From the IMG/VR virus record IMGVR_UViG_3300040946_000488: a stretch of DNA of 64,000 bases. One strand, given 5' to 3'. The DNA comes from an uncultured virus (IMG/VR IMGVR_UViG_3300040946_000488) (taxonomy: Duplodnaviria > Heunggongvirae > Uroviricota > Caudoviricetes). The notes under the pieces are model-generated. The model did no database searches and was not told where the DNA came from. It saw only the letters and a list, made by a program, of their open reading frames with translations. A program made the position numbers and the translations under genes. How positions within the stretch are numbered: position 1 is the first letter of the stretch; the number at the start of each line of letters is the position of its first letter. This document shows, piece by piece, positions 15,646 through 59,316 of the stretch.

Positions 15646-15981
15646 ATGAGGAACGAGATCCGGGAATGGCCGTCGCGGAAGGCACTCGCCAGGCTGGTCC
15701 TCGTCGGACTGCTGGCCATCCCGCTGGCCTTCAGTTGCGAAGATCCTGCTTGCCACGACAAGAGAGCCAACCAGGCGACTCCGGTCGCGGCCGATCTGGG
15801 CCCGCAGGGTTGCCGAGATCATATCGTGGATTGCGAATCCAACGTCAGCTGCCCATATGCCGGCCAGAAGATCGAGACGACGGTGGGCGAGAGGGCGGAT
15901 GGCTGCGGGAAGAGATCGATCTGCGTCTGCCGTTGCCCCAGCGAATCTTCTCCCCCGGACCCGGCTCCCGTCGCTCCCTGA
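15646..15981 (+). CDS. Cys-rich lipoprotein
   Basis: Signal peptide with LAFSC lipobox; multiple Cys. Confidence 0.6.
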   Translation: MRNEIREWPSRKALARLVLVGLLAIPLAFSCEDPACHDKRANQATPVAADLGPQGCRDHIVDCESNVSCPYAGQKIETTVGERADGCGKRSICVCRCPSESSPPDPAPVAP

Positions 15982-15994
15982 AAAGAAAGGCGAC

Positions 15995-25341: not shown

Positions 25342-26114
25342 CATGCCTATCCGGTTGACGCCCCTGATGTCCATATTACTTCCGAAGAGCCTCTTCCATT
25401 TACCCCCGGCTTTAACAATGCAAAGGACCTAAAAGGGAGCCACTTAGCGCCCTCGTTCTCACAGACAATCACATCGCCTTGTCTAGTTCGGCACCAAGCG
25501 CCAAGGTGTGCATAATCAAGGTCCCGTGGCCCATTGGGGTAGTATGCGCCAGCTCTGTTGTTATAGGGAGGATCGATGAACCACGTGGCCGCAACATCTG
25601 GAGACTTCGAGTAGTCGCCTTGAATCACCTTCCAATGTCGTATTGCACCTACCTGGCTAGCGACGCGCTCCCTTGTGGCTTCTGTCCAACCCTCAAATTT
25701 GCGACCCATTTTGGCTAGTCGAATTCTTCCGATACTCAAGCTTTTCCGAGGGTTTACAGTTGCACTATTGAACCACCATCCGACTAGATTTCTAGCCGAG
25801 TATGGAACCCAAGCAGGTAAGTCATCAATGTCTATTACATTGGCGGGAATGCTTCGTATCTCGGCCTCGGAAACGCCGATCAGATAGGTCCACAGATCGG
25901 CGACAATGGGGTTCTTTTCCACCAAGATCACCTGCCGTTCTGGGTATCTAAGACTGTACCCGGCAGCTCCGGCAAAGGGTTCTACGATTATGGGCATGAG
26001 AGGCTTTGGATATCTCGGAGCGGCTCTGTATTTGCCTCCGTAGTATCGCCAGAACGGTTTCAAGGTCATTTAATCCCTATCGAGTTGGTGGAGTGAGTGA
26101 ACCGAATAAGCATG
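25342..26114. mobile_element. non-autonomous IS1595-type cassette carrying a DNA methyltransferase
   Basis: Ends CATGCCTATCCGGTTGA / TGAACCGAATAAGCATG shared with 39905-40158; low GC; degenerate flanks. Confidence 0.75.
25347..26069 (-). CDS. DNA adenine methyltransferase (D12/Dam-like)
   Basis: YYGGK, VEPFAG, FIDPPY. Confidence 0.9.
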   Translation of the reverse strand: MTLKPFWRYYGGKYRAAPRYPKPLMPIIVEPFAGAAGYSLRYPERQVILVEKNPIVADLWTYLIGVSEAEIRSIPANVIDIDDLPAWVPYSARNLVGWWFNSATVNPRKSLSIGRIRLAKMGRKFEGWTEATRERVASQVGAIRHWKVIQGDYSKSPDVAATWFIDPPYNNRAGAYYPNGPRDLDYAHLGAWCRTRQGDVIVCENEGAKWLPFRSFALLKPGVNGRGSSEVIWTSGASTG

Positions 26115-26134
26115 CCATTCCTCTCTGCCGAGGA

Positions 26135-26518
26135 CTACAGTCCTGCCACGCTCACCACCGTCCCCCTCGGCCCTATCCTGGGATTGCTCACGGCCTCGAT
26201 GAACTTCTCCGTCACCATGCCTGGATCGTCAGCCCCCTCCGGCCCTCCCCGATCCCAGCCCGTGATCCAACCTCCCTCTATGAAGCCGCGCACGTCCAGG
26301 CGCCAAAATGGATTCCTGGCACAGTCTTCCATCCAGATCGATCTAGGAATCCAGTCGATTATCTGTTTCCTGCTCACGGGAGCCCAGTCAGCCAGCTTGT
26401 TGTCCCAATGGTACAGGACGATGCACGCGGCCACGTTCTCCAGCTCCGCCCTGCCCAGCGTGGCGATGCATGTGGCAGGAGACTGCACCCTGATCTGTCC
26501 GGGCTTCAGCCTTTCCAT
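26135..26518 (-). CDS. hypothetical protein
   Basis: AGGAGG RBS. Confidence 0.6.
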   Translation of the reverse strand: MERLKPGQIRVQSPATCIATLGRAELENVAACIVLYHWDNKLADWAPVSRKQIIDWIPRSIWMEDCARNPFWRLDVRGFIEGGWITGWDRGGPEGADDPGMVTEKFIEAVSNPRIGPRGTVVSVAGL

Positions 26519-27244
26519 CTCGCCTCCTGGGTGAGCATCCGCAATGAGAATTGGCCGGCGCCGGGAAAATCATGCTTGAGGGCATCGGATGCTCCCCGGC
26601 GGGTCACGGGCTTCATGAAATACAGCATGGTCCAGGGATGCTCTGGCGGCCAGTGGAGGAACCGATACTTCCATACCAGGCTTTTCGGCTGGTGGGCCGG
26701 CATGACACGTGCTTTCATTGATCGATCCCTGGAATCCTGAACCCGAAGGCAAGTCACGCTGATGGATGCCTGATTTTCTCCCACGACGACATTCCTCCCT
26801 GCCAACTCGCGGCTCGCGAAGGTGCCTGGCGGAGATCGGTGGCTTTTCAGGCTATCGCATATCCAATTTTTCAATGTGCATGGACGGGGCATGCCGGCAT
26901 TTCCCTCGTACAAGATCTCGACCTCGAACCTGAACGCCTTCTTCTTGTTCGTCATCGTGGATTGCTCCCCATCTTTCCCGCCAGTCGTCGGCTCATGACT
27001 TCAGACCGTCCATTGGAGGTCAGCGACCAGATCCACCTGCCCTTCCCGTGGGACGCTCGCACGAAGTCGACCTGGGCAAGCCCACGCCTCCGCAGGGCGT
27101 GCAGGGTCCTGCCTCCCTCGCGGGCAGAGGTCTGCCAGCCGTAGGCACTCTGTCGTTGGGTGATGGCCGAGCCTATGGAGGTGCAGGTATGCTCGCCTGG
27201 CCGGGCCAGCCTGCCTAAGGCAATCTCCTGTGGCAGGGACAGCT

Positions 27245-27592
27245 TCATGTTTTCCCTTGGTCCCCGGCTTTCCTGGAAATCACGATCATGATCCCGGAAC
27301 CGTTCTTCAGTTCCAGGACGGGCCAGCCATCCTTGCCCTTGCTGCTCGGGCGATCTTTGTCCGCCAGGAGATTAAGTTCGGTCACCATGATGGCCAGGTG
27401 GCGTGACACTTCCACTGCTTCCTCGGCATCGCGGCACGTGATCTTGAAGAGCGCTCCTCCATTGAACTTGGAGCTGGCAATGGCCCTGGCAGCCGCCACC
27501 TTGCAGGGAGACTGGCCTGCCATGAACCTGTCGATCCAGGCGTCCGTGATGTCCATCGGGATCATCAGGTCTTGTGAGAATGAATCCATCAT
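27245..27592 (-). CDS. hypothetical protein
   Basis: Coupled ORF, high GC3. Confidence 0.55.
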   Translation of the reverse strand: MMDSFSQDLMIPMDITDAWIDRFMAGQSPCKVAAARAIASSKFNGGALFKITCRDAEEAVEVSRHLAIMVTELNLLADKDRPSSKGKDGWPVLELKNGSGIMIVISRKAGDQGKT

Positions 27593-27598
27593 CGAACC

Positions 27599-27931
27599 CT
27601 AACCATCGTATCCCCCTGCGGGGACTGCGGGCCTACCCACCCCACCCCCACCACCCGCGCTTCGCGCGCCCTTGCCAAAAACCTGGCCGTATGGACGATC
27701 AGTACCGGGAGCCGATTGAAGCTTCAATCCGAGCAATGCCAACCGGACCTTGACGGCGTCCGACGAATTGGATTCCAGCGTGGCAATCACCGGCCTGACG
27801 ATCTCATCCACCCGGGCATCCGCGAAAGCCATGATTAGTTCCTTCAAGGATCCCAGGCTCGCCATGTCGTGCTGCCTCAACTCGTATTCCAGCGCCTTCC
27901 AAGCTTCTTCTTTGGTATGGGGCATGGTCAA
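27599..27931 (-). CDS. hypothetical protein with in-frame element near C-terminus
   Basis: ...VFG|KGARSAGGGGGVGRPAVPAGG|YDG*. Confidence 0.65.
   Translation of the reverse strand: MTMPHTKEEAWKALEYELRQHDMASLGSLKELIMAFADARVDEIVRPVIATLESNSSDAVKVRLALLGLKLQSAPGTDRPYGQVFGKGARSAGGGGGVGRPAVPAGGYDG
27612..27674 (-). repeat. 63-bp element copy A
   Basis: ccccctgcggggactgcgggcc...cgcgcttcgcgcgcccttg. Confidence 0.95.
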
Positions 27932-28359
27932 TTTTCCTTTCCCCCTGCGGGGACTGCGGGCCTACCCACCCCACCTCCCCCACCCGCGCTTCGCGCGCCC
28001 TTGTCTCCCACTTTCGCGATCTGGGCAGCGCTTTCCCTCTTCTCCGCCATGATCCGGTCCGCCGCCATGATCATCTCCTTGGGCAGCAAGTAAGCTGCGC
28101 ACGTGGGACAGAGGGGACAGATCGCCATGCCAGGATTCGGCCCAGGGGTCACGCTGGTCATGATGCCAGGACGAAGATTGCAGACGGATGCGTACCATCC
28201 CGCCTGGCCCAGGGCATCGGTCAGGGCATCGGCATCGGCCACGCAGTCGAAAGACAGGACGAGCGAATTCTTGCAATTCGTCGGCTTGGCATCCACGGCC
28301 CCCACGCAGGCGATCCTGAGCGCGAAGGACAGCTTCTCGTCGTCATCGGCCATCGTCAT
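27928..28359 (-). CDS. hypothetical protein with in-frame element near C-terminus
   Basis: ...VGD|KGARSAGGGGGVGRPAVPAGG|KEN*; CPLCPTC. Confidence 0.65.
   Translation of the reverse strand: MTMADDDEKLSFALRIACVGAVDAKPTNCKNSLVLSFDCVADADALTDALGQAGWYASVCNLRPGIMTSVTPGPNPGMAICPLCPTCAAYLLPKEMIMAADRIMAEKRESAAQIAKVGDKGARSAGGGGGVGRPAVPAGGKEN
27941..28003 (-). repeat. 63-bp element copy B
   Basis: Near-identical to copy A. Confidence 0.95.
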
Positions 28360-28627
28360 CCTCCGATCCGGCCCTTGCCACGGACTCCATGAACGTGGCC
28401 ATGCTTCGCACGGCCTCGTCGTGCCTGCCACCCCCACCACCCCCACCCTCGCTTCGCTCGCCCTCGCTAGCCACGTCCGAGGAGGACGATGAGGGGGCAT
28501 GGGGAATCGCTGGGGGCTGGGACAGGTCCCGCAGCCGGGCATGGCGCCTCATCTCGTAGTCGAATATCGCCACTCCCTGATCCCGGTTCCCCGAGGCCAG
28601 CCGGATCCATGAATCTTCCCCGGTCAT
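28343..28627 (-). CDS. hypothetical protein with partial element
   Basis: Contains EGERSEGGGGGGGR. Confidence 0.5.
   Translation of the reverse strand: MTGEDSWIRLASGNRDQGVAIFDYEMRRHARLRDLSQPPAIPHAPSSSSSDVASEGERSEGGGGGGGRHDEAVRSMATFMESVARAGSEDDDGR
28423..28466 (-). repeat. truncated element copy C (hairpin 1 plus G tract)
   Basis: ccacccccaccacccccaccctcgcttcgctcgccctcg matches the unit at 38585. Confidence 0.85.
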
Positions 28628-28837
28628 CCGATCTTGTCTCCCGGGGGACCGCCAGGGCAGGATCCGGCGAGACCCACCGTCCCCTGGGGAGGGCCAATAT
28701 GGGGCGTGGCTCCCTGGGGCGAGAGGGGATCGCTCGCGTCGGGCAAGGATGCCATCCGTTTGAGATCATCTTCGTGCAATGCCTTCAGGTGCCTCATCTC
28801 GTTTTCCTTCTTTTGAGCTTGTAGTGTACTTTCTCTT

Positions 28838-29299
28838 CTAATGCCTTTCATTTAACACTGCAACAAGCTTATGGATGGGACAATCTGCTCGAATCCCTGT
28901 TGGCGGACAAGTATAAAACGATTGCACAATCGTTTCCAGTTCAGCCTGGTGGGACAGGAGAGCCCTCACGGCCTCGCAGGCATCATTGTCCCACCGTGCC
29001 TCGACGCAGGTCCTCAATGCATCTTCGTCGTGCCTCTTGACGATAGACTCCAATAAGGTCCGAGCTTCATCATGATCTGCCTCGACCTTCCCGTCGCGCA
29101 GTCGGGTAGGATACTTGTATGGCCCTTCGCCCCTGGGCAGCATGGCGATGCGCGGCCCAGCCATGCCCGGGTGCCGGGGAATGTTGGTCCTCATGCGATC
29201 ATGGTCGAGGATTCCCTGGCCGTCCACGCAGCAGGTCTCCACGTAGGCCAGCAGGGAGAAGTGATCTTTACCCCATTCGTTCATCGGCACGAACCTCAT
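28838..29299 (-). CDS. conserved phage hypothetical protein
   Basis: WGKDHFSLLAYVET..VD, YPTRL, DHD. Confidence 0.6.
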   Translation of the reverse strand: MRFVPMNEWGKDHFSLLAYVETCCVDGQGILDHDRMRTNIPRHPGMAGPRIAMLPRGEGPYKYPTRLRDGKVEADHDEARTLLESIVKRHDEDALRTCVEARWDNDACEAVRALLSHQAELETIVQSFYTCPPTGIRADCPIHKLVAVLNERH

Positions 29300-29311
29300 G
29301 TTGGTTCCTTG

Positions 29312-29842
29312 TTAATTTGCCTGGGAAGATATGACTGAGTTACCGGGATCGGGTGCCCTGAAGCCGACGAGCGTGATCAAGTCCTCCACCTGTGCCTTCG
29401 CCAGCCTCATGAAAGATTCCCTGGCGGCCAGCAAGCGGGAGAGCATGACGACATTGTTCTGGAGGACCTGCACCACGGACAGGCTATCGCAGGCATCCAC
29501 CTCCGACAACTTCCTCGCGCGGGCCTCCGCGGCCTGCGAGAGCACCCTGCGCTCCGCCATCTCTGCCAGTTCTCCCTCGCCCATGGGTTCGGAGTCCTTC
29601 TTCCGGCGATCTATCGAGATCATGTCGTCCATCCTCCCGATGAGGAATCGCAGGATCATTGCCTGGTGGGGAACGGATACGCAGTTACCGACGATGGCGA
29701 CTGTCATCCTGAGGAAGCCATCGAGCTGGCCGAGCATCAGCGCCTGCTCCGACTCCGGCAGTCCGAGCTTCCCGACCTCGTCCCTCTGTCGGACGTCCCT
29801 GTCGGCGATCATCTTCTTCACCAATTCCATGTCGATGGCCAT
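29312..29842 (-). CDS. hypothetical helical protein
   Basis: AAGGAG RBS. Confidence 0.65.
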   Translation of the reverse strand: MAIDMELVKKMIADRDVRQRDEVGKLGLPESEQALMLGQLDGFLRMTVAIVGNCVSVPHQAMILRFLIGRMDDMISIDRRKKDSEPMGEGELAEMAERRVLSQAAEARARKLSEVDACDSLSVVQVLQNNVVMLSRLLAARESFMRLAKAQVEDLITLVGFRAPDPGNSVISSQAN

Positions 29843-30570
29843 GATCTGTCTCCTTGTCGGCGATTACCTTCGTCACCAATTCGATCTCACACGCGCTTTG
29901 CGCTCTTCCCTTCACGTCGATTTCTTCGACGGCGGCTTGAGTCTCGGGAAGTCGACGTCCACCACTTCGATGGTGCCCGAATTCAGGATGTCGTCTACAT
30001 CGACAGGTATCCCCGTGGCTTGCTCGAAGTAATCCAGATCCATCGGACAGTACAGGTCTTCCAGTGTCTTTCGCTTCTCGTCCGGGACTTCGATCGTCAG
30101 CATGGCATGCAAGGCTACATCAATGTGGATCTTCATCGTTCACTTCCCCAGGGACCATCCTGGCTGACGGGGTCATCTTGGGACGATGCCTCGATGCATA
30201 GGCGGAATGCCTCGTCGAGTGCCTTCATCCCCTCCTCGAAGCCATTGGGGTCGCGATCGTTCCCGTGGGCTGCAGTGGCCTTCCCTATGAGGTCTTGCAG
30301 CCGGCCTATCACGATGAGCAGATCGCGTCTCGTCGGCTTGCGTTTCATCGAGATCTCCTGACGGCTTTCCCTGCTTTCTCCAGCGACCCGAACACTTCGC
30401 ACGTCTCGGCGTCGATCGAATGGAATGATTCGTTTCGATGGATATACAACCGTGGATCATGTGCCCATGCCCATCTTGGGAGGGGAGCCTCGCATGTCCC
30501 CTCGTCGGTCCCAAGGAATCTCTGTTTCCAGTGCCGGCACTGTCCACATTGACGGCCCTTCATGGGGGAC

Positions 30571-31902
30571 TCAAAAACGGCCGGCCGAGATCTCGTCCCT
30601 CAACAACCTCGTCACCTCCGCGACAGGATCCGCCGCAGACAAGATCTGGCGGCCCATGACCAGGTGGGTGGCCCCGGCCTTCCTGGCTTCCTCCGGCGTG
30701 GCCACCCTCTTCTGATCGTCGGTAGACACCCCGGGCGACCGGACGCCCGGGGTCACGAAGAGCATCTTGCGGTCCCACGGCATGGAGGACAGCATCCCCA
30801 CCTCCTCTGGCGAGCAGACGAATCCGTCCACCCCGGCCGAGTGGGCCAGCTTGGCCAATGAGATGACCTGGTCCATCGGCAAGCGATTGTAGATTTCCTG
30901 GCAGTCATCCTTGCCGAGGGAGGTGAGCAGGGTGACGGCCAGCACTTTCGTCCCGGCATCCCGTAACTGGTTGACTACGGCATTCATCATCTGGAAGCCG
31001 CCGGAGGCATGGACGGTCACGGCCCATGGAGGGCGATGAGCCATGCGCTTGCAGGCATTGGCCACCGTGGCGGGGATGTCATGTCCCTTGAGATCGATCA
31101 TGACCCGGCCGTACACCGAGAGATTGGGCAAGATCCAATCCAGGCCCTCGGCCAGCATCAGGTCGTTGACCTTGAGGATGCAGCCCGAGGTCCTGATCTT
31201 GTCCAGGAACGGCAAGATCTCGTCCCAGTCCTTGCCATCCAGGGCCAGGATGATGGGATTGCCTTCTTCCGCCGCTGGATCGCAGCGCCTCATGAGCTTG
31301 TTCTCGATGGCGTGCTTCCGGATGTCGTGCAGGGTCATGGCAGACCACACCATGCACTGCGCCTCCTCCAACAAGTGCCCGATCTTGTCTCTCCAGCCCT
31401 GCTGGCGATCCACGAGGACCACCAGGGCAATCAATTCGGCCCCTGCCTGGCGGACGGCCTCGATGGCCGCGATCTTGGAAGCCCCGTCCGTGATCACGTC
31501 GTCGATGATCGCCACCCGCTCGCCCGCCTTCAAATCCCCGATGATCGTGCCCTTCACGACCCTGCCCGGCTTCGCCTCCTCCCTGACGGTGACGATGGGG
31601 ATGCCGGTGAGCGAGGAGATGACCCCGGCCAGGGGACTGACAGCCTCCGGCACTTCCACGATCCTGTCGATCTGGCGGATACGGCGCAGGGGATTGGAGT
31701 ACAGGAAGGCCAGCGCCTGGAGCTCACGGGGATGGCTGCGCATCAGGCGGAGGTTGACGTAAATGTCGGTGGTGCCGCCGCTCTTGAGCGGCAGGCTGTG
31801 CAGATTGTCGAACTTCAGCAGATCGTTGTCGGCCAGCCTCTCGATCGCAGCCTCCTGCTCGCAGGGCGACAGCCAGTGTCCCAGTCTATCGTTCGTGCTC
31901 AT
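30571..31902 (-). CDS. pyrE: bifunctional orotate phosphoribosyltransferase / OMP decarboxylase (PyrE-PyrF fusion)
   Basis: LKSG..YVNLR, AIIDDVITDGAS; DLKGHDIPATV, VTVHASGG, TPGVR, DDQKR, VMGRQI. Confidence 0.95.
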   Translation of the reverse strand: MSTNDRLGHWLSPCEQEAAIERLADNDLLKFDNLHSLPLKSGGTTDIYVNLRLMRSHPRELQALAFLYSNPLRRIRQIDRIVEVPEAVSPLAGVISSLTGIPIVTVREEAKPGRVVKGTIIGDLKAGERVAIIDDVITDGASKIAAIEAVRQAGAELIALVVLVDRQQGWRDKIGHLLEEAQCMVWSAMTLHDIRKHAIENKLMRRCDPAAEEGNPIILALDGKDWDEILPFLDKIRTSGCILKVNDLMLAEGLDWILPNLSVYGRVMIDLKGHDIPATVANACKRMAHRPPWAVTVHASGGFQMMNAVVNQLRDAGTKVLAVTLLTSLGKDDCQEIYNRLPMDQVISLAKLAHSAGVDGFVCSPEEVGMLSSMPWDRKMLFVTPGVRSPGVSTDDQKRVATPEEARKAGATHLVMGRQILSAADPVAEVTRLLRDEISAGRF

Positions 31903-31942
31903 GTCGTTGGGTTCCTTTCGTCGATGCCTTGTTTTTCCTATT

Positions 31943-32308
31943 TCACAGATCTTCGATGTGTCGTCGCTCGCAAATCTTCCTCTTCCGTTCCGAGAGAAAC
32001 TCTCCGGCGGGCAAGGTGACATAGCACTTGGAGCAGCATACATGCACGTCCGGTCCCCTCCTCTCCTGGATGGCCCTGATGTAGTTCACCAGGTTGAGCA
32101 TCAAGTTCTCCTTGATGTCGGGGTGCAGGTGAGGGTTCTCCCGGATCTTGCGGGCTATGTGCCGGCAATCGTCCAGGGTGGATGCTGCCTTGATCGCGTG
32201 GCAGAAACGCGAATCCAGCATGCTGATGCCGTAAGGAGTGTAGGCTGCGCAGGTGAACAGTCCCTGCTGCGGTGCTTGATCGACATACAGGTTCGGGTTG
32301 ATCATCAT
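31943..32308 (-). CDS. hypothetical protein
   Basis: Coupled ORF; CSKC. Confidence 0.55.
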   Translation of the reverse strand: MMINPNLYVDQAPQQGLFTCAAYTPYGISMLDSRFCHAIKAASTLDDCRHIARKIRENPHLHPDIKENLMLNLVNYIRAIQERRGPDVHVCCSKCYVTLPAGEFLSERKRKICERRHIEDL

Positions 32309-32465
32309 CCACCAGAATTCTTGTGATTCCTGACCTGCAATTCCATCAAGAGCTTTGCCTCCAGATCGCTCAATTCCCAATGACTGTCCTCGCCCCTGGC
32401 CACGGGCGGAACGGCTTCGAGGCACATCCTGGTAGAACTTCTTTGTTCCATGCCTATCGGCTTCC

Positions 32466-32494
32466 TTGACAAAGCGTTTGCGTCATGCTAGTTT
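32466..32494 (+). promoter_or_regulatory. inward promoter in left TIR for transposase
   Basis: TTGACA-17-TAGTTT with extended TG. Confidence 0.6.
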
Positions 32495-32501
32495 CTGACA
32501 C

Positions 32502-33563
32502 ATGGACCCACGCGGCTTCCCGACCAGCATCCCCGAGTTTCAGCGCGTTTTCCCCGATGACGCAGCCTGCGCCAAGTACCTCGAAGCGGTGCGCTGGCCC
32601 GACGGTTTCACCTGCCCAAAGTGCGGCGTGGTAGGCGAGCCCTACCGCTTCGCAACGCGCAAGTCTGTGGTGCTGCGCTGCCGGCCCTGCCAGGTCAACA
32701 CGTCGCTGACGGCTGGGACCGTCATGCAGGGCACGCACACTCCGCTGTCGACGTGGTTTTGGGGAGCGTACCTCGTAACCACGCAGACGCCCGGCATGTC
32801 GGCCTTGCAGTTTCAGCGGCAGCTCGGCCTGGGTTGCTACGAGACGGCCTTTCAGATCCTCCACAAGCTGCGGGCGGGCATGGTCCGCTCCGGCCGGGAC
32901 ACCATAGGCGGCGAGTATCCCGTTGAGGTGGACGAGTGCTACATCGGCGGGCGCACGCAGGGTGAGGGGCGAGGTGTCCACCATCAGACCACCGTTGTTG
33001 GGGCGGTCGAGGTCCGCACGCGCAGGGACGCCGAAGAGCGCACCGCGAAATGGAAGGAATCGCACGAGGGCGGCATTCCCACGAAGAAGCTGATCTATGC
33101 GGGCAGGCTGCGCCTGAAAGTCGTCTCTGGCATCCCGTCCAAGCTGGAAATGCTGGCCAATCCACTGACCACCGGACGCGGCGCCGAGCAGCTTTGCGGA
33201 TTCATCCAGGGCAACGTGTCGCCGGGGTCCACCGTCCGCACCGACGGCTGGGTTGGCTACAAAGACCTGCCCCAACTTAGCTACACCCACGAACCTCTGA
33301 CCATCAATGGCGACTCCGAGAAGTGCGAAGCCCACATGCCCATGATCCACCTGGTTTTCAGCAACCTGAAGACCTGGATCTTGGGGACGCATCATGGTGT
33401 TTCTCCTCAGCATTTGCAGGCTTACCTCGACGAGTACACTTTCCGCTTCAACCGGCGCTTTTACCCGATGACGGCTTTCCATTCGGTGCTTGGTCTCGCC
33501 GTGAAGACTGTGCCACCGACCTACGCCCAGCTTTACTCGGGGGAATGGACTCGCGCGGCGTAG
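32502..33563 (+). CDS. IS1595-family DDE transposase
   Basis: RWPDGFTCPKC...CRPC Zn ribbon; VEVDECYIGG, TDGW, YLDEYTFRFNRR. Confidence 0.95.
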   Translation: MDPRGFPTSIPEFQRVFPDDAACAKYLEAVRWPDGFTCPKCGVVGEPYRFATRKSVVLRCRPCQVNTSLTAGTVMQGTHTPLSTWFWGAYLVTTQTPGMSALQFQRQLGLGCYETAFQILHKLRAGMVRSGRDTIGGEYPVEVDECYIGGRTQGEGRGVHHQTTVVGAVEVRTRRDAEERTAKWKESHEGGIPTKKLIYAGRLRLKVVSGIPSKLEMLANPLTTGRGAEQLCGFIQGNVSPGSTVRTDGWVGYKDLPQLSYTHEPLTINGDSEKCEAHMPMIHLVFSNLKTWILGTHHGVSPQHLQAYLDEYTFRFNRRFYPMTAFHSVLGLAVKTVPPTYAQLYSGEWTRAA

Positions 33564-33658
33564 TGAAGAAATCGTAGTCCTCGGCCAGCACGGCTCGCTT
33601 CTTGTCGAACATGCGCCGCATGCGAACAAGGCGTTGTTGGGGAGTCATTTGCATATCT

Positions 33659-34516
33659 TTAGTGCCGAAGCTGGACTTTTAACTCATTTATGAGGCGCAT
33701 CAGCCAGATTTCTTCATATTCGAGGCGTTCCAATACCTGTGGCTCGAAGATACGATTCCGCATTTCCGGAACGATATCGATCTGCTTGAACCGCTCGACT
33801 GCGAAGCCCTCTTCCTTAAAGAAAGAAGTTGCAGCTTCCCAGTCAATGAATGCGTCTTCCGCAATGCTGCGCCCCGTCACTTCGGTTACCCGTTTCAACG
33901 TGCTTGCTTGCTTCGTTTCGGGATAGAAACGCTCAAACGACTCCCTAATCACTACGTCGGACGTGATCCACGCTCCACCAAAGACTTTTAGCAGACTGCG
34001 GATATTTCCCGCGAACTGCTTACGTTCGGACATGGTGAGGAATTGAAGCAGTCCTTCATGTACGACCGTTATCGGTTCTCGCTTTAACAACCCGGCTGCA
34101 TTCCAGACTTCTTCGGTCTGTAGCACGTTTGCGGGATGCAGATGGTAATTAGCTCTTTCAGGAAGCGGGATGAGTGCCTTGACGATCAATCGCTTCTCCT
34201 CAAGTAATTCCGGAAGATCGGTTTCGACGATCAGCATTGACGGGTCTTCTGAGAGGATGAGGCCGCGCGGCGCAACTCCCCCGGCAAACTCTAATACTTG
34301 TCGGCAACCGAGACGATGGATAAACGTGTTCAGGGATTTGAAACGCAGCTCTATGTATGCTCGGTGGTTTGCAATAAAGCCGGGGTTGAACGTGCGAGAA
34401 ACTTCTTCGGCATCACACATGTCGGCGATTTGACGGCAGTAAGGGATGTCGGTCTCGGCGCGAAGAAAGGCGGCGAGCTTGGCCGTGGGACTGATGCGGG
34501 CGTGATGAATAGTCAC
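33659..34516 (-). CDS. passenger class I SAM-dependent methyltransferase (LCM-like)
   Basis: ISPTA, QVLEFAGG, ETDLP, HEGLLQFL; low GC. Confidence 0.8.
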   Translation of the reverse strand: MTIHHARISPTAKLAAFLRAETDIPYCRQIADMCDAEEVSRTFNPGFIANHRAYIELRFKSLNTFIHRLGCRQVLEFAGGVAPRGLILSEDPSMLIVETDLPELLEEKRLIVKALIPLPERANYHLHPANVLQTEEVWNAAGLLKREPITVVHEGLLQFLTMSERKQFAGNIRSLLKVFGGAWITSDVVIRESFERFYPETKQASTLKRVTEVTGRSIAEDAFIDWEAATSFFKEEGFAVERFKQIDIVPEMRNRIFEPQVLERLEYEEIWLMRLINELKVQLRH

Positions 34517-34680
34517 AATCCTCCTAAGAAGGTGGTGGTAGGGCCATGACGCGGAGCCATATCACGCACCAGCTTTCTTGTCAATCAACCCGATAGGCAT
34601 GCTTTGTTCCATGATCCTCCCGACGTTATTCCGGAAGGCCAGGGAGCGCACGAGAGTCTTGATCTCATCGTCCGTCAGGT

Positions 34681-35394
34681 TCATGACCTCGCCTTTCCTT
34701 TCGTCGAGGAACGTCTCGGTTCCGCCAGGGCATGCGCCTCTTGCTCGCCGGCCGCGGCCAATCCGGCCAGCAGCAAGGGATTGGCGCCGATGGCGTCCAG
34801 CTTGGCTCCAACCTCATTCCCGTCCGGGCCTAGCAGATTGGCCAGCATCTTGCCGAGCGAGGTGAGGCCGTCCTTGATGGCACAGAATTTTCTCCATCTG
34901 TCGATCGTGAAGAGGACACTCTCGGAATGGTACATATTGTGGGATTCGGGCCTGCACGGCTTTCCGAACGCCTCGGCGACGGCGATGTGACCGGACTCGT
35001 CGATGTCCACTGGGATCTCAAGCTTCGGCTCATCGAACTTGTTCCTGGCGACCGATATCCGCGCCACGCGAAAATCCAAGCTGATGCTTTTCGTATCCCC
35101 CCCGAACCCAGAGTGTTCTTCCAAGCCCCTCCAGGTGTACTCGATCACGTCTACGAACTCCGTCACGTCGCGGGAGATGAGGAATGACTTGGCAGCCGCC
35201 TTGGCTTCCGCCAGCGTCGGGGCCTCGAACAATTCCTGATGCACCCTCAGGCGATTGGGATCGATCTCCTCGCCCGGGCCGCCGGGCACCAGGATCACGA
35301 ACAGATCTCTCTCCATGTCCAGCCGGACGTCGAGATCGTACTCGGCCAGGACCGTGGTGACCTTGAACTTCCCGATCTTCTTTCCGTGGCTCAT
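34681..35394 (-). CDS. hypothetical protein
   Basis: High GC3; ATGA overlaps. Confidence 0.65.
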   Translation of the reverse strand: MSHGKKIGKFKVTTVLAEYDLDVRLDMERDLFVILVPGGPGEEIDPNRLRVHQELFEAPTLAEAKAAAKSFLISRDVTEFVDVIEYTWRGLEEHSGFGGDTKSISLDFRVARISVARNKFDEPKLEIPVDIDESGHIAVAEAFGKPCRPESHNMYHSESVLFTIDRWRKFCAIKDGLTSLGKMLANLLGPDGNEVGAKLDAIGANPLLLAGLAAAGEQEAHALAEPRRSSTKGKARS

Positions 35395-35677
35395 CCTTCG
35401 CTCCTTGGCTTGCCAGGATCTTCCCACCAGGCCTGCAAGATCAGGTACGTCTTGCTGGCCTGCCATCTTCTCGTCAATCCCTGGGTACAGTAGTCGATCA
35501 TCCCGAAGAACACGCATGAGGCTATCACGATCGTCAACAGTGGCCATAAGACAGCCATCGACGATGCGGTCCCAAAATCCGTCTTGAATCTCGTCCTGCG
35601 ATTCACTTCCCGGAGCAGCATGAAGTGGATGGCAGCGACCGCCAGGTACGAACCCCCGATCATCCAATTTTGCATCG

Positions 35678-36247
35678 TCATCTTCCCCATCCCCTCATCA
35701 AGAGTTCCATGGCTTCCCGATTTCCTGGTATCCGGTGGAAACCATACAGCAAGAAGGAGGTGGCCGGGCCAATCCACGCGAAGATCGCCATCCACCTCAC
35801 GATAGACGGCCCGAACTTGAGATGATCCCTTCCCTCGAAGACGAGGTTCCATCCTACCTTGTAGCCATCCAGGAAGGGCACGGGCAGCATGTTGACGAAG
35901 TTGAAGATGACGACCTGCACGGCGGCTGCCGCCAAGATCGGGAGCCGGCACGCGAGGTACAGTCCCCCGAACAGCAGGGCCAGGCTCATTCCCGCGATGG
36001 GCCCCATGGCGGCTACGAAGGCCATGGGCCGGCCCCTCAGCCGGGCACCAGGCAAGACGACCGCACCAATCGGGAGGAGGACGATGGATTTCACGTTGCC
36101 CCCGAGATGCCAGACGGCCCACACGTGCCCTGCCTCATGCGCCGCCATCACCAACAACGAGAAGATGGCAAAGTCCAGCGACCAGAGCCATGCCCAGGAG
36201 GCCAGGGACAATATCCCCAGCAGCATGATGAGGGGCTTGCGTCTCAT
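35678..36247 (-). CDS. site-2 protease family (M50) membrane metallopeptidase
   Basis: HEAGH, AMGP, NMLPVPFLDG. Confidence 0.85.
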   Translation of the reverse strand: MRRKPLIMLLGILSLASWAWLWSLDFAIFSLLVMAAHEAGHVWAVWHLGGNVKSIVLLPIGAVVLPGARLRGRPMAFVAAMGPIAGMSLALLFGGLYLACRLPILAAAAVQVVIFNFVNMLPVPFLDGYKVGWNLVFEGRDHLKFGPSIVRWMAIFAWIGPATSFLLYGFHRIPGNREAMELLMRGWGR

Positions 36248-36263
36248 TGAATTGGCCTTCCCC

Positions 36264-36779
36264 TCAGTTACCCGTGCCCAGTAGTTGGCGATAGCCTGCC
36301 ATCATGGCGGCGATCTGGTTGCGGGCCAGGAGGATGATCGGGATCTTGGGAGGCAGGGAAATGGCCATCTTCGATGCCTTGTCTTGCAGGGCCTGCACGG
36401 TGAGCATGACGGCAGTCACTTCCGCAGGGATCAGCCCGGCGTCTTCCAGCTTCTCCAGATGAGACCTGATCAATTCCCTGCCCAGGGCCGTGCAACTCGC
36501 CATGTCCTCGGGATTGGCCAGCAGCATCTCTTCCACGCAAGCCAGGTTGCCCAGCTTCTCCGTCAGCAGATCCATGGCCATGTCCTGGATCGTGCCGGGA
36601 AGCGCTCCGATCGCCTCCACGGATTCGGCGACGAACTCGGTGATTTCATGGCTGGCCTTGTCCGACAGATCTTCCGGGATCCCAATCTCCCGCATGATCT
36701 CCTTCTCCCTCTCCATGGATCGGATGGACAGTTCATGGATCTTGCGCTCGATGGCTGGATCGATCTTGGGGATAGTCAT
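36264..36779 (-). CDS. hypothetical helical protein
   Basis: GAGGGG RBS, high GC3. Confidence 0.6.
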   Translation of the reverse strand: MTIPKIDPAIERKIHELSIRSMEREKEIMREIGIPEDLSDKASHEITEFVAESVEAIGALPGTIQDMAMDLLTEKLGNLACVEEMLLANPEDMASCTALGRELIRSHLEKLEDAGLIPAEVTAVMLTVQALQDKASKMAISLPPKIPIILLARNQIAAMMAGYRQLLGTGN

Positions 36780-37003
36780 GTGCCCCTCGATTCACGCCTG
36801 TGCTTGTCAGGTCGCGACTTGACGGCCCGGCGTCGTGCCGTGATGAACGGAGGCTCGCGTTCCTCCCCCTGGGGCTGGGATTCCCATGGAGGTTCCCCCG
36901 GGCCGGCAAGCTGGTTCATGGCCGCCACCATGGCCCCGTCGAAGTCCGCCAGGGTGCCGTCCAGGTCGAAGAGAGCCACGGGCTCGGGTTCGCGAGAATT
37001 CAT
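36776..37003 (-). pseudogene. HAD 5'(3')-deoxyribonucleotidase-like fragment
   Basis: ALFDLDGTLADFD motif I only; 75 aa. Confidence 0.55.
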
Positions 37004-37811
37004 GTATCCCCCGATCCGTCGTCTGGGAACAGGTAATCCCGTGCCTTCTTCCAGGCCGCAGTGAATCCTGCGTCGATGTGATGCTTCCCCTCGCCGGTGC
37101 AGAGGGAGCCCCGCGAGGCAGACATGACCATCTCGCGCAACAGCGACTCGGCGAGAGTGCCGGCTGGCTCCTTTTCCTTCATCCCGGCACTGGCCACCAT
37201 GGCCTGCGCAGCCTCCCCGAACGAGCACCTGAAGATGGAAGACACTTCTTCCTGATCCAGCCAGAGGCCGGTCGCCTGGTGGAGCACGAACAGCTTCTTG
37301 GCCAAGAGATCTAGGTCGACCGGCCCTGCCGTGGCACAGTAAGGCTCGGCCCGGTTCTCGAAATCGGCGTCCGTCACGTTCCCCAAGGCATGAGCGAGTT
37401 GCAGTCCCAGGAACTCGCGCAACCTCCTGAAGCCCTCGATCGTCTCGCCGAGGACATCGCGTGAGATCGCCGGAGATCCGGACTTCTCGGTCACCTGGAT
37501 CCCCCGGCCTGTGCGGCCATCCCCTGGAAATTGGGGCACGCCATGGCGGCATACTTCATCGCGTCCTCGAAGGAGGGAGCCGTGTACTTGGTGTTCGTGG
37601 CGAAGCTCCGGTGCTCCACCACGTCGACGTATTCACTCAAGGGATTTGCCTGGAAGCGACAGTAGTCGGTCTTGCCACTGGAGAAGGCCGATATGCCGAT
37701 GCAGGTCACCACCAGCCCGATCAAGAGGGTCAAGGCTGCGGTGACTATGGTGTTCCAGATCTTCTCGAAGTCCATGTGATTCCTCCGCGTGAGAGTGACG
37801 TGATTACCGTC

Positions 37812-38534
37812 TCAGCCTGCCATCTCCCGTTCCTCCAGGATGGCCTTGCCGTATAATTTCTGGAGGATGCCGATAGCCTCGGATTCGAGCTGGCGGATCC
37901 TCTCCCGGCTCAGCCTCAACGGTTTCCCGATCTGAGAAAGCGTCATGGGCTCGCACCCCAGCCCCCAGTGTTTCTTCAACACATCTTGGTGCAGGGGTTT
38001 GAGCCGATCGATGAATCCCTGGAGTTGCTGGATCTCCTCCATCTTCATGACCATCTCTTCGGCTGCTGGTAGCAGGCACGGTGGTTCCGTGAGAGATTCC
38101 TTCAAGAGGTGCTTGATCCTGGAGACCTGGGACTCGTCGATCTTGAGGGAAGACCTGGGATTGGTGACGGCCAGGATCACGTCAGGAAAGAGATCTGAGG
38201 GCAGGCACGCGAAATAATCGGCCAGCGGCAAGATGCATTTCTTCCAGCCTGTCTTCGGAGGGAATGCCATGCCGGTCACGGCCTCCGTGATCGCATGCTT
38301 CCGACACAAGGGTCCCTTGCTGAAAACAGCTCCATTATCGCAGTCAGGAATCCTGCAGATCGGAAGCATCCGGATGGGCGACATCCTCAAGCCTTCCAGT
38401 TCTGAGTAGATGCCATGACTGATGCCTGCTTCCTGGGCAAGTTCCTTCTGGGTCAGGCCTAGCTTGAGCCTACGCTCCTTCAAGAGGTTGTTCTTGAGGG
38501 TGACGTTGATCTCGAATTCCTTGATCTTGGCCAT
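37812..38534 (-). CDS. XRE HTH plus sigma70 region-4 protein
   Basis: GLTQKELAQEAGIS; MTLSQIG..LRLSRERIRQLESEAI. Confidence 0.85.
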   Translation of the reverse strand: MAKIKEFEINVTLKNNLLKERRLKLGLTQKELAQEAGISHGIYSELEGLRMSPIRMLPICRIPDCDNGAVFSKGPLCRKHAITEAVTGMAFPPKTGWKKCILPLADYFACLPSDLFPDVILAVTNPRSSLKIDESQVSRIKHLLKESLTEPPCLLPAAEEMVMKMEEIQQLQGFIDRLKPLHQDVLKKHWGLGCEPMTLSQIGKPLRLSRERIRQLESEAIGILQKLYGKAILEEREMAG

Positions 38535-38541
38535 GCTTCCC

Positions 38542-39495
38542 TCACCCTCCCGTGCCTTGTGCCTGTCCGCCAACGAGTCCCTTGCCCCCTTCGGGGACTG
38601 CGGGCCTACCACCCCCACCACCTCCACCCTCGCTTCGCTCGCCCTTGCCCCCTTCGGGGACTGCGGGCCTACCACCCCCACCACCTCCACCCTCGCTTCG
38701 CTCGCCCTTGCCCCCTTCGGGGACTGCGGGCCTACCACCCCCACCACCTCCACCCTCGCTTCGCTCGCCCTTGGCGACCTTCGCCCAGGTCTTCCGGTCG
38801 AAGCTCTCCCACACGCTGCCATCCAGTTCGTGTCGGTAGTAGGGAGGACATCCAGTCGATAGTTGGGAGATCGTCGAGACCCATAGTTCCCACAGGTGCA
38901 AGATCTGATCGTCGCGCCAGTCCCATACGCAGATCTGAGAGCGCAGGGCATCCAGCGGAGCCGCCAGCGTGGCATCCCTGTCCGCCAGGCTCTGGTAGAA
39001 ATGCGTCAGCATGCAGTCCTTGTTGTAGGTCTGCCCGGGGATGAAGGACAGCCGGCCGTTGAGCAGGTAGACATCCCCGTGCCCCGCGATGAGATCGCAG
39101 AACCAGTTAGCCCCCACCGCAGCGGGGGTGAGCAGGAGGATGTTCGCCCCCTTGGAGGACTCCAGGACGCAGCGCCTGGCCCAGGTCGCGATGTCGTTGA
39201 ACTCGCAGTTGAGCCAGAGCAGCCCCTTGCTACCATCCTCGCGCTTGAAGAGGGAATCAGACAGCATGGCCCAGGAATGATCGAAGGCATCCATGCCGAA
39301 CGCCTTCGTGTCCAGGGGCATGGGGCCTGCCGGCCCGGTGCAGGGCGCGAAGTAGTTGGGGGACTGGGCATTGCCGGCATGGGCAGCCAGATCGAAGGCG
39401 ATCGGGCCGAACCGCTTGGCCACGGCCGCCATGAAGTCGGCAGGTGTCTTGTAGTCCTGCTTGCTGTCCGATCCGGTGGAGATGCGGGCGCCCAT
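38542..39495 (-). CDS. phage N6-adenine methyltransferase-like (phage Dam family) with 3-unit element tail
   Basis: QDYKTP, FDLAA, WLNCEF in place of NPPF, NWF, GRLSF. Confidence 0.75.
   Translation of the reverse strand: MGARISTGSDSKQDYKTPADFMAAVAKRFGPIAFDLAAHAGNAQSPNYFAPCTGPAGPMPLDTKAFGMDAFDHSWAMLSDSLFKREDGSKGLLWLNCEFNDIATWARRCVLESSKGANILLLTPAAVGANWFCDLIAGHGDVYLLNGRLSFIPGQTYNKDCMLTHFYQSLADRDATLAAPLDALRSQICVWDWRDDQILHLWELWVSTISQLSTGCPPYYRHELDGSVWESFDRKTWAKVAKGERSEGGGGGGGRPAVPEGGKGERSEGGGGGGGRPAVPEGGKGERSEGGGGGGGRPAVPEGGKGLVGGQAQGTGG
38585..38773 (-). repeat. three tandem 63-bp elements (copy D)
   Basis: Exact 63-bp period, preceded by an extra CCCTTG. Confidence 0.95.
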
Positions 39496-39507
39496 CGTGA
39501 AGACCCT

Positions 39508-39537
39508 ATCCTATGCCGACCCTGAACGAGGTGTCAA
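39508..39537 (-). promoter_or_regulatory. sigma70-type promoter with conserved spacer motif
   Basis: TTGACAcctcgttcag...ggcaTAGGAT (18 bp). Confidence 0.75.
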
Positions 39538-39548
39538 GATCTAACTCG

Positions 39549-39896
39549 TCATGGACGGATCATCTGGAATCTCGGCATGATCTCGCTCATCCTGCGGCCA
39601 GCCATGGCAAGCTGAAGCTCCGGCTGCATGGTGGACGGCACCTCGCGGGCCAGGACCTCGACGATGCGCATGAAGCGGATCGCGTTGAATTCCTTCTCGT
39701 CCCTCGCCACGCCTACCGTAACCCCCTCGTGATCTATGACGAGGAACAAATCGCCTTGCCCATTGGCCGGGAGACCCTCCTGGGCATCCGGGGCCTTGGT
39801 GGCCAGGCGAGCCCCAGCCCGGATCTTGTCCAGCAGCTCGATGAACCCTTTCTCGATCTCATTGAGATCGAGCTGCGCCTTGCCTGGCATTGCCAT
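39549..39896 (-). CDS. hypothetical protein
   Basis: ATG immediately after the cassette TSD; high GC3. Confidence 0.55.
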   Translation of the reverse strand: MAMPGKAQLDLNEIEKGFIELLDKIRAGARLATKAPDAQEGLPANGQGDLFLVIDHEGVTVGVARDEKEFNAIRFMRIVEVLAREVPSTMQPELQLAMAGRRMSEIMPRFQMIRP

Positions 39897-39904
39897 GTCC
39901 CAAC

Positions 39905-40158
39905 CATGCCTATCCGGTTGACGACCCTGACTCATTAACAAGGTGTTTTTCATTCCAAGCTATCAAACGGTTGCGTGCTTGCGTTGCTTGATGGTCTGGA
40001 AGAATTCCGTAAACATTCAGCATTGTTATGCACATTTGGGCTCGCCTGAACGAAGAGGACTGCTCCCAAGCCGGAAAATTTTCTTCGCGACTTAACTCAG
40101 CCATAGCCAATCTTCCTTTTCTATCAAATCGGTGGAGTGCGTGAACCGGATAAGCATG
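39905..40158. mobile_element. 254-bp non-autonomous IS1595-type gene cassette
   Basis: TIRs CATGCCTATCCGGTTGAC / GTGAACCGGATAAGCATG; perfect TSD GTCCCAAC (39897-39904, 40159-40166). Confidence 0.9.
39910..40104 (-). CDS. 64-aa cassette cargo protein
   Basis: AAGGAAG RBS; stop codon lies inside the TIR (...SSTG*). Confidence 0.65.
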   Translation of the reverse strand: MAELSREENFPAWEQSSSFRRAQMCITMLNVYGILPDHQATQARNRLIAWNEKHLVNESGSSTG

Positions 40159-40458
40159 GTCCCAACTACAGGGGATCCAGGGGGAGGGCACGGATGGACG
40201 AGTTGCCAGGATACGAGGATATCACTATGATCCCCGCCGGCAGCAGCTTATACAGGGCATCGCCCGCATCCCATGTCTCCAGGGGAGGAGGCATCTTCAC
40301 CTTGTAGATCCGGAAGAATGCAGTCCCTTCGTCCTCGTGGTCCTCGCACGACACGGTCGCATCGTCTTCCGACCACACCAGCGTGGAGTTCTTGTCCAGG
40401 GTCCAATCAGGCTGGGGATTTTCAGTCATGTGGATTCTCTCCCGCGTGTTTCATATTG

Positions 40459-40752
40459 TCACTTCGGCGATTCCTTCAGGATGATCTTTCCCGCCAGGAT
40501 GCCCCAGGATGGGTACTCATCGAACACCCATTCGGCGTCCGTGGCCTCGCCAGACGCTGCCGGGCGGGTCAGCACCCACAGGTTGGATTCCTTCCAGGTA
40601 GCATTCACCAGCTTCCGGCCTGCTGGCAAGGCGACCGTCTCCTGGGAGCCCCAGCGCTTGACCCTGGCCATCTTGGTGCAGCCCGTGCCGGCCAGGGAGA
40701 TGGCCATGATCCCGAGGCACAGCAACGAGTCCCTCGTCGTCAAGATCTTCAT
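40459..40752 (-). CDS. phage lipoprotein
   Basis: Lipobox GTGC; KLVNATWKE.NLWVLTRP. Confidence 0.7.
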   Translation of the reverse strand: MKILTTRDSLLCLGIMAISLAGTGCTKMARVKRWGSQETVALPAGRKLVNATWKESNLWVLTRPAASGEATDAEWVFDEYPSWGILAGKIILKESPK

Positions 40753-41827: not shown

Positions 41828-42304
41828 TCATGGCCTGATGATCCTGGATTCCCAGGGAGCCGGATCGGGGACATCCCTCAGTATCACGAACCCATGGTAC
41901 CCTGACGTCACGATGGACGGCTGCACGGCCCACACGTCCCCCTGCGGGGACTGCGGGCCTACCCGCCCCACCCCTGCCCCACGCGCTCCGCGCGCCCTTG
42001 CTGGCCCCAGCCTGGCCAGCCCCCACCGCATCATCTTGCCGTCGACAGCCAGGGGCTCAGGCCCCACCGGGACATTGCACTGGACGAGCAGCCCATCTCC
42101 CCGCACCAACGTCAGGATGAGGCTCCACTGGCCAGCCCGATCGGGCACCGCGAAGCATGCATCCGTGCGAGCCGTCATGGCCTGGACGAATCCTCGTTGC
42201 CAGGCAGGGAAATTCGTGTGGATCACCTGGGCGTAATCTATCGTCCTCTCGACGGGTTCATCCATGTCTGTCACTAATCCACGAGCATCGTCGCCGTAAT
42301 GCAT
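41828..42304 (-). CDS. hypothetical protein with in-frame element mid-domain
   Basis: LGP|ARARGARGAGVGRVGPQSPQG|DVWAVQPSI...HGF. Confidence 0.65.
   Translation of the reverse strand: MHYGDDARGLVTDMDEPVERTIDYAQVIHTNFPAWQRGFVQAMTARTDACFAVPDRAGQWSLILTLVRGDGLLVQCNVPVGPEPLAVDGKMMRWGLARLGPARARGARGAGVGRVGPQSPQGDVWAVQPSIVTSGYHGFVILRDVPDPAPWESRIIRP
41938..42000 (-). repeat. 63-bp element copy E
   Basis: Gap-free match to copies A and B. Confidence 0.9.
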
Positions 42305-58812: not shown

Positions 58813-59316
58813 CTATTGTACCAGGAATTTTCGGCCTGGGCCTGCCAGCCTCCGCTGGTGTCTCTCACGGGTCTTCCTCAAGATCACGTGAGCTATGTCG
58901 GCGACGTGCTCAGGCCCGAAGACCACCTTATCGCCCTTGTGGACCGAAGTGTCAAGGGCGCGCGAAGCGCGGGTGGTAGGTGCAGGGTGGGCAGGCCCGT
59001 AGTCCCCGCAGGGGGCAAGGGCGCGCGAAGCGCGGGTGGCAGGGGCAGGGTGGGCAGGCCCGCAGTCCCCGCAGGGGGCAAGGGGTTCAGACTCGACAAT
59101 TCCCAAGAAAGGCAAGCATCCCTCCTCGTCATTTCGCGTGAGGACCCTGGCCCACAGTCGTTCTCCGACGCCCTCGAAGACCAGCTTCACCAGATCGCCG
59201 GGCCACAGATCTTCCCTCTCCTCCCTGGTAGGTATCTCGAACGAACTCGATTCCTTGTTCCGTCCCTCGACGTTGGCCAGCTCGGCAGTTCCATGCATCT
59301 TGTTCTTCGGCATCAT
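58813..59316 (-). CDS. DUF2314-like protein with two in-frame elements
   Basis: GDLVKLVF..ERLW.RV...FLGIVESEP...GDKVVFGPEHVAD. Confidence 0.7.
   Translation of the reverse strand: MMPKNKMHGTAELANVEGRNKESSSFEIPTREEREDLWPGDLVKLVFEGVGERLWARVLTRNDEEGCLPFLGIVESEPLAPCGDCGPAHPAPATRASRALAPCGDYGPAHPAPTTRASRALDTSVHKGDKVVFGPEHVADIAHVILRKTRERHQRRLAGPGRKFLVQ
58953..59078 (+). repeat. two tandem 63-bp elements (copy F), antisense to host gene
   Basis: 63-bp period, followed by an extra CAAGGG. Confidence 0.95.

Follow-up and report, generated by a model that had tools for sequence, protein, structure and literature searches.

Transposase-less cassettes with IS1595-type ends carry single genes in the DNA of an uncultured virus

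Mobile insertion cassettes (MICs), miniature transposable elements with inverted repeats (MITEs) and transporter insertion sequences (transporter ISs) are established concepts treated in PMC3129680, which refers to De Palmenaer 2004 for the first and cites Siguier, Gagnevin and Chandler 2009 for the last. In MICs, such as MIC231 (with IS231, of Bacillus cereus) and those of qnrS2 and qnrD, the inverted repeats of an IS flank one or several passenger genes without a transposase and the cognate IS is thought to act in trans, while transporter ISs of the IS1595 family, whose features include the DDE_Tnp_IS1595 catalytic domain (PMC8101967), have passenger genes beside their transposase. MITEs shared by prokaryotes and viruses have been described as non-autonomous inverted-repeat elements present in viral contigs and in hosts (PMC11602168). 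Here we describe two units, cassette 1 (25342–26114) and cassette 2 (39905–40158), and an IS at 32449–34601 in a stretch of 64,000 nucleotides (the window) from an uncultured virus (IMG/VR record IMGVR_UViG_3300040946_000488). The analysis supports the view that both units are transposon-derived cassettes with IS1595-type ends in which another gene replaces the transposase, and it is highly probable that they are non-autonomous MICs derived from an IS of the IS1595 family.

Like MICs, both units are flanked by IS inverted repeats, with 18-base tips that also occur on 14 transposase-bearing elements, and each holds a passenger and no transposase. They differ from MICs such as MIC231 in their IS1595-family ends, in having environmental phages as hosts, in the fitting of one open reading frame (ORF) to the transposase slot and in a cargo dominated by DNA methyltransferases. 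The IS at 32449–34601 and two elements from viral contigs (E36 and E37) are of the same kind as the described transporter ISs, whereas both cassettes have lost the transposase altogether; likewise, five viral elements (E01–E04 and E06) are plain MITEs, whereas the cassettes carry conserved genes. In the searched passages of PMC11602168, a survey of MITEs in viruses from 2024, the terms IS1595, methyltransferase, cargo and passenger do not occur. Integron gene cassettes are also single promoterless ORFs exchangeable as units, but the elements described here have transposon repeats with 8-bp target duplications in place of attC and an integrase. Phage morons, finally, are extra genes that lie exactly between two phage genes, often have a deviant G+C content and by definition possess their own promoter and terminator. 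The cassettes resemble them in precise placement and deviant G+C content, but have transposon ends and no promoter or terminator signals of their own. The features of the two cassettes are:

25342..26114, cargo on the minus strand: cassette 1, a probable transposase-less mobile insertion cassette of 773 bp (inverted-repeat tips, G+C content 0.51)
25342..25367, minus strand: downstream end (repeat) of cassette 1, which gives the cargo's last codons and TAG stop
25347..26069, minus strand: cargo 1, a 240-aa DNA adenine methyltransferase-like protein (phrog_56 match, homologues)
26071..26114, minus strand: module forming the upstream end of cassette 1 (a repeat tip of 18 bp and a conserved stretch)
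39905..40158, cargo on the minus strand: cassette 2, 254 bp (tips and a perfect 8-bp target duplication)
39910..40104, minus strand: cargo 2, a 64-aa protein (from ATG) with no assigned family, ending in STG plus TAG inside the repeat, 5 nt from the tip

The tips of both units are the same inverted repeats, CATGCYTATYCGGTTSAC. Read directly, the left ends (25342–25367 and 39905–39930) are identical at 25 of 26 bases and the right ends (26077–26114 and 40121–40158) at 33 of 38, and within each unit the two ends are inverted repeats of each other over ~18–22 bases. A preliminary description of this DNA, made from the sequence alone, had reported two low-GC units with common ends, and this was confirmed, the G+C content being 0.51 in cassette 1 and 0.47 in cassette 2 against 0.61 in the window. 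An 18-base tip consensus, allowing up to 3 mismatches, has five matches in the window where 0.43 are expected, a number reached in 0 of 100 shuffles; four of these are the unit ends and the fifth (34584–34601) marks where the IS starting at 32449 has its right end. Since the 7 matches of a 12-base core (1.2 expected) are all six ends plus one stray match, the window holds exactly three such elements. The tips presumably fit the terminal consensus of the ISSod11 group in ISfinder. The resemblance to the ends of the IS pointed out in the preliminary description stands for the first 10 bases, but the repeats of the IS and of the cassettes diverge from position 11 on. Its statement that both units are co-oriented with the operon also holds: both cargo ORFs lie on the minus strand, as do the neighbouring genes with Pfam or PHROG matches.

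Cassette 2 has been inserted where 7 nt separate the stop of a minus-strand gene from the start of the gene that follows, and a perfect 8-bp target duplication, GTCCCAAC, stands on either side of it (39897–39904 and 40159–40166); the cassette is also present in contig L140. Nothing above chance was found for cargo 2 in Pfam, PHROGs, NCBIfam or the ESM Atlas, but the protein has relatives at 80% identity (P0126, ending in ASTG), 69% (with another tail) and 31%, the last in L085, a 247-bp cassette whose ends are the same, and two of the three carry the repeat-coded tail. Cassette 2 was considered as a MITE, an element without coding capacity; this was rejected, as its 64-aa ORF is conserved at these three levels of identity. 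Cargo 1 likewise runs into the left repeat and ends in STG plus TAG, with the stop 5 nt from the tip, and the upstream module of cassette 1 ends in the Shine-Dalgarno-like GATAGGG 6 nt before the ATG. It matches phrog_56, 'DNA methyltransferase' (E 7e-14), shows FxGxG and DPPY motifs by eye and has 2148 homologues, a few of which are named site-specific DNA-adenine methylase or have PF02086; the protein itself has no Pfam or NCBIfam match, and sequence comparison with solved structures gave chance-level matches only. Among GenBank phages only relatives of 35–37% identity were found, and the one inspected has no cassette ends. Among the 120 best homologues, 10 end in repeat-coded [S/L]TG or STE tails. 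The conserved core of the homologues ends ...EV(I/L)W and is followed by tails of varied length, so the junctions differ between cassettes. The same methyltransferase family is found in E26 behind a different upstream end.

The position of the cargo ORFs is that of the transposase ORF in related ISs. In plain ISs, whose repeats are ~40 bp long, the transposase ATG lies at nt 49–54 from one tip and the stop 13–42 nt from the other, while cargo ORFs start at nt 24–63 from one tip and stop 5–57 nt from the far tip. The upstream end in the window's subfamily is a conserved module of ~40 nt ending in ..CGATAGGAGAACA, followed by 1–6 bases and the start codon; this ending is found in 10 of the 13 listed elements of the subfamily, the window's two and E21 being variants, and it forms a ribosome-binding site. 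Of the three frames of the downstream repeat, one contains a stop, which is TAG or TAA at 5 nt from the tip or, where the repeat reads TTCAC, TGA at 14 nt. Cargos of at least six unrelated families (E05/G15, E30/E26, E18–24, E21, E28 and E29) enter the repeat in this frame, as do several transposases of the family, which also end in a repeat-supplied stop; the cargos that do not use this stop end 23–57 nt before the tip. The earlier claim that the end repeat supplies the stop is thus right for both cargos of the window and for only part of the wider family. The STG tails arise because a cargo ORF in the transposase slot stops at or inside the repeat, and a tail of this sort is expected of an ORF fitted tightly to a repeat that cannot be dispensed with. 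In these comparisons, ends and cargo behave as modules. Hence the cassettes, called interchangeable in the preliminary description, are so in the sense of modularity across sites; an exchange at one site was not seen.

The third element in the window is larger than first described, and its features are:

32449..34601, plus strand: transporter IS, an autonomous relative of the cassettes, 2153 bp (ends, 8-bp duplication, empty sites elsewhere)
32502..33563, plus strand: IS1595-family DDE transposase, 353 aa (PF12762, PF12760, NF033547)
33659..34516, minus strand: IS passenger, a 285-aa S-adenosylmethionine-dependent methyltransferase-like protein, convergent with the transposase (PF04072, TIGR00027)
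32305..32448 and 34602..34684, minus strand: 3' and 5' parts of a phage gene of 72 aa split by the IS

What had been called an autonomous IS at 32449 does encode an IS1595 transposase, but its extent is corrected to 2153 bp (32449–34601) and it includes a passenger gene of its own; with this gene beside the transposase, the element is a transporter IS. An N-terminal zinc-ribbon is found in all IS1595 groups but IS1016, and the element has this domain (PF12760, 6.5e-14, residues 18–64) together with the DDE domain (PF12762, 1.1e-29) and an 8-bp target duplication, CTTTGTTC, at 32441–32448 and 34602–34609. Its transposase scores 185.6 bits against NF033547 (cut-off 75), and the passenger matches PF04072 (LCM, 2.4e-5) and TIGR00027 (3e-6, below the cut-off of that model). 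Read outward, the last three bases of each tip of the elements are ATG. At the IS, this terminal ATG gives the split gene an in-frame start again, the ORF reading MEQRSS...GG followed by a stop; at cassette 1, an ORF of 11 codons begins with it, and the TGA of this ORF overlaps the start codon (ATG) of a glycosyltransferase gene. The transposases of elements with identical tips are 49–80% identical to one another, a range that includes the 50–65% identity between the window transposase and the enzymes from ISs whose tips are of the cassette type. The transposase at 32502 is nevertheless a doubtful helper for the cassettes, as the repeats of its IS depart from theirs from position 11 onward; it may possibly cross-mobilise them.

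The natural population is found in peat and wetland metagenomes (20 runs of 18 studies). Variants of this locus were sought with a metagenome scan centred on the IS, whose contigs do not reach cassette 1, and in Logan contigs of 4 runs. In four metagenome contigs 99.8–100% identical to the window (L140–L143) and in a contig of run X5 (record 16), 34602 is joined to 32440, so that the 8 bp stand there only once and the 72-aa gene is whole, as seen in L140. The IS is present in the window and in contig L145, and run X12 (record 1) has a copy of it, with 1 difference over 2153 bp, that lies within the cassette found at the cassette-1 site and has a new 8-bp duplication of its own at 25369–25376. 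In run X3, loose ends fall exactly at 32446–32449 and 34601, which shows further sites of the IS. The IS at 32449–34601 is thus currently mobile. For gene-bearing cassettes the signs of movement are indirect: two 98.96% identical copies (E09 and E10) of a 287-bp cargo cassette lie at separate places in a single viral contig of 194 kb, each within a perfect duplication of its own, and three related deoxyribosyltransferase cassettes occupy three different sites. Of the MITEs, one of 235 bp (E01) is found at two sites of one contig, again with different duplications, and one of 242 bp (E03) is found at 2 sites.

The wider family was collected with a 22-base tip pattern, searched for in viral contigs and in bacterial and archaeal genomes. 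In viral contigs the pattern was found in 46 stretches, and pairing of tips gave 57 pairs representing 39 distinct sequences, the window's two included; among the 39, the 8-bp duplication is perfect in 25 and wrong at a single base in another two. The long pairs E38 and E39 are mis-pairings, the five MITEs are 235–256 bp long, and E36 and E37 each carry an IS1595 transposase (by Pfam) plus a passenger, with transposases 92.7% identical in nucleotides and unrelated passengers. Two elements carry a TnpB-like gene, and the other 28 or so, including the cassettes of the window, have one cargo ORF each. Eight of these 28 cargos are DNA methyltransferases of several families (phrog_56, phrog_799, phrog_363 and PF01555), one is the restriction-alleviation protein Lar and three belong to one nucleoside deoxyribosyltransferase family, at three different sites; the remaining cargos have no identified function. 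Genes for portal, head protease, DNA polymerase, primase and RecT and replication genes flank the viral copies. In metagenome-assembled bacterial and archaeal genomes of many phyla, the pattern was found in 97 stretches, many at contig ends, and 16 of 35 distinct pairs have perfect 8-bp duplications. Twelve bacterial pairs are ISs of 1062–2397 bp with a transposase of 324–434 aa; most bacterial copies are plain ISs of 1.06–1.4 kb or MITEs of 83–265 bp. As only ~4 of the 35 pairs carry a cargo ORF, gene-bearing cassettes are mainly a phage feature in these samples. IS1595-type transposases are thus found on E36, E37 and the 12 bacterial ISs, identified by Pfam in the former two and by 49–80% identity in all. 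By eye, the target duplications are A+T-rich and often have G/C at outer and A/T at inner positions. In sequenced phages, 3 distant IS1595 matches were found in 50,697 records.

Several individual members of the family deserve mention. Two transporter ISs (L005:3001–4784 and L036:3001–5016) have 99% identical transposases, the same tips and unrelated passengers, one of which is a cysteine-dioxygenase-like protein. The TnpB-like genes (OrfB_IS605 plus Cas12f-like TNB) occupy the transposase slot of 1.14-kb elements with IS1595-type repeats (L026:414–1549 and L039:4072–5210); these lack a target duplication, and a 235-bp MITE sits at the very tip of the element in L039. One cassette, found at the same site in two contigs (L002:3001–3520 and L012:2272–3022), differs by 231 bp between them because the number of 33-nt coding repeats in its cargo varies. 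A lone end-like match in contig L157 was rejected as a cassette end because it is not a canonical tip.

In the favoured reading, the cassettes keep the two terminal inverted repeats needed by the transposase (tips CATGCYTATYCGGTTSAC), while one cargo ORF has taken the place of the transposase ORF in the same slot. The upstream end supplies a ribosome-binding site before the cargo ATG and the downstream repeat the in-frame TAG/TAA or TGA (TTCAC). The cassettes would be moved in trans by a DDE transposase that autonomous relatives sharing their tips encode, with the formation of 8-bp duplications, as suggested by the duplications, the multiple copies and the existence of such relatives. Expression would depend on the surrounding phage operon, since neither cassette has a sigma-70-like promoter or an intrinsic terminator on the cargo strand; in line with the neighbours, the cargo has their direction in 17 of 20 elements with agreeing flanks (of 32, by a crude strand call based on G+C content at third codon positions). 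The benefit to the phage would likely be protection from host restriction, because methyltransferases and other anti-restriction genes dominate the cargo of the family.

Several observations weigh against the reading of the units as MICs. The flanks of cassette 1 agree at only 5 of 8 bases (CAATTCAG and CCATTCCT), so that a clean target duplication, perfect in cassette 2, is absent there. No transposase with exactly cassette-type repeats is encoded in the window, where the repeats of the IS are of another type and its transposase is only 50–65% identical to those of ISs with cassette-type tips. Empty alleles were obtained for the transposase-bearing IS, but none was found for either cassette: in Logan contigs of 4 runs, where absence proves nothing, no joint removes either cassette cleanly, and the proteins flanking the two cassettes have no relatives in the viral contigs. 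For two other viral cassettes, those of L009 and L038, the relatives of the neighbouring proteins were too distant or rearranged to reveal an empty site. A strand call by the longest ORF, unreliable at this G+C content, gave no co-orientation signal (31 of 63 flanks), and some of the 'viral' contigs could be prophage or host DNA. Part of this would be accounted for if the units were fossils, which once transposed and now spread or are exchanged only by homologous recombination between co-infecting phages, with the ends as homology arms. Recombination between copies at different sites would leave cassette 1 without a clean duplication, a cognate transposase would not be needed in the window, and the content changes in run X12, where the cassette-1 site has the same first 76 nt and then ~169 other letters in place of 707 and the cassette-2 site has 201 other letters between the same tips, would fit as well. 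Yet near-identical copies with their own perfect duplications stand at different sites (E09/E10 and the MITEs E01 and E03), and the sister IS is demonstrably mobile today. Moreover, the X12 variant of cassette 1 can be read as an internal deletion, the 76 nt including the cargo's last 23 codons, and that of cassette 2 as a diverged homologue, P0126 showing the same tail at 80% identity. Considered as cassette exchange at one site, the variants in X12 and X5 fit deletion or divergence equally and are not counted as support. We regard the fossil explanation as unlikely.

The other explanations fare worse. The intergenic position of the units and the ribosome-binding site in the upstream module might suggest that the shared ends are conserved regulatory or intergenic sequences of the phage, such as a promoter, terminator or packaging signals, but IS1595 transposase genes from many bacterial phyla have these tips on either side, 8-bp duplications accompany 25 of 39 viral and 16 of 35 bacterial pairs, and the ends occur in unrelated phage contexts, which makes this very improbable. 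There is hardly any chance that the units are decayed IS copies with a degraded transposase as cargo: they do share the ends of an IS and have similar ORF start and stop positions, but the 240-aa ORF of cargo 1 is intact, belongs to a large methyltransferase family and has no IS1595 domain, and cargo 2 has conserved relatives. This bears out the preliminary description, which had proposed transposase-less cassettes and named degraded transposase as the alternative for the cargo, placed instead by PHROG, Pfam and homologue searches among DNA methyltransferases. That description had also made its view depend on further cassettes or empty alleles; further cassettes do exist, and an empty allele turned up for the IS but for neither cassette. 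Equally hard to credit are integron-like or other site-specific recombination cassettes, to which single promoterless ORFs co-oriented with the operon would correspond; the units have terminal inverted repeats with 8-bp duplications at varied targets, no integrase domain was found in 102 ORFs of at least 110 aa scanned between 19.8 and 47 kb, and the autonomous relatives encode a DDE transposase.

Near the cassettes, phage-like minus-strand genes (24 to 47 kb) encode Dam, Lar, a sigma factor, a metallophosphoesterase, a HerA/terminase-like ATPase and glycosyltransferases; RNase H, an HNH endonuclease and a PurZ-like synthetase are encoded upstream. As the window contains no virion gene, its assignment to a phage is likely rather than proven. 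A 528-aa protein encoded at 15857–17443 (plus strand) matches phrog_1211 (PurZ-type adenylosuccinate synthetase-like, 9e-60), a hint that the phage may have 2-aminoadenine in its DNA. At 30571–32043 (minus strand), a fused phosphoribosyltransferase and orotidine monophosphate (OMP) decarboxylase gene lies in a phage-like context; contigs L146–L148 lack 30417–34782, this gene included. Other insertions and deletions in the population are unrelated to cassette ends: L140 and L142 have 689–690 extra bases at 36808, L144 and L149 lack 35836–36834, and in runs X12 and X8, 403 other letters replace 42 at 40416–40459. A G+C-rich repeat family of ~63–69 nt with two short hairpins is found on both strands of the window, and the alignment of L140 suggests one unit fewer than in the tandem array:

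27606–27674, 27935–28003, 28398–28466, 38579–38773 (3 tandem copies), 41932–42000 and 61481–61549: G+C-rich repeats
58953–59084 and 11108–11179: G+C-rich repeats, inverted copies

The class of mechanism proposed for the cassettes is known; its novelty lies in three directly testable features, namely that the setting is a phage, that the cargo is anti-restriction and that the ORF fits its slot exactly. In the literature searched, IS1595-type cassettes that bear genes in phages were not found described, although Siguier et al. 2009 may already describe MIC forms of this family. The cassettes offer a concrete and testable route by which single accessory genes come to lie exactly between two phage genes, and the same route bears on the travel of anti-restriction genes between unrelated phages. 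IS1595 elements, nearly absent from sequenced phages, thrive in uncultured ones, and the family combines defined ends, a defined transposase family and a natural population with one member caught moving. In addition, repeat-coded protein tails are a simple marker for cassette-borne genes in protein databases. More tentatively, IS1595-derived 'ORF-slot' cassettes might be a general vehicle for the acquisition and exchange of anti-defence genes among unrelated environmental phages, or 'transposable morons': with a ribosome-binding site in one end and a stop codon plus an outward ATG in the other, any ORF placed between them would be expressed in an operon without breaking it, and the TnpB-bearing members may be a hint that DDE transposition and RNA-guided nucleases are linked.

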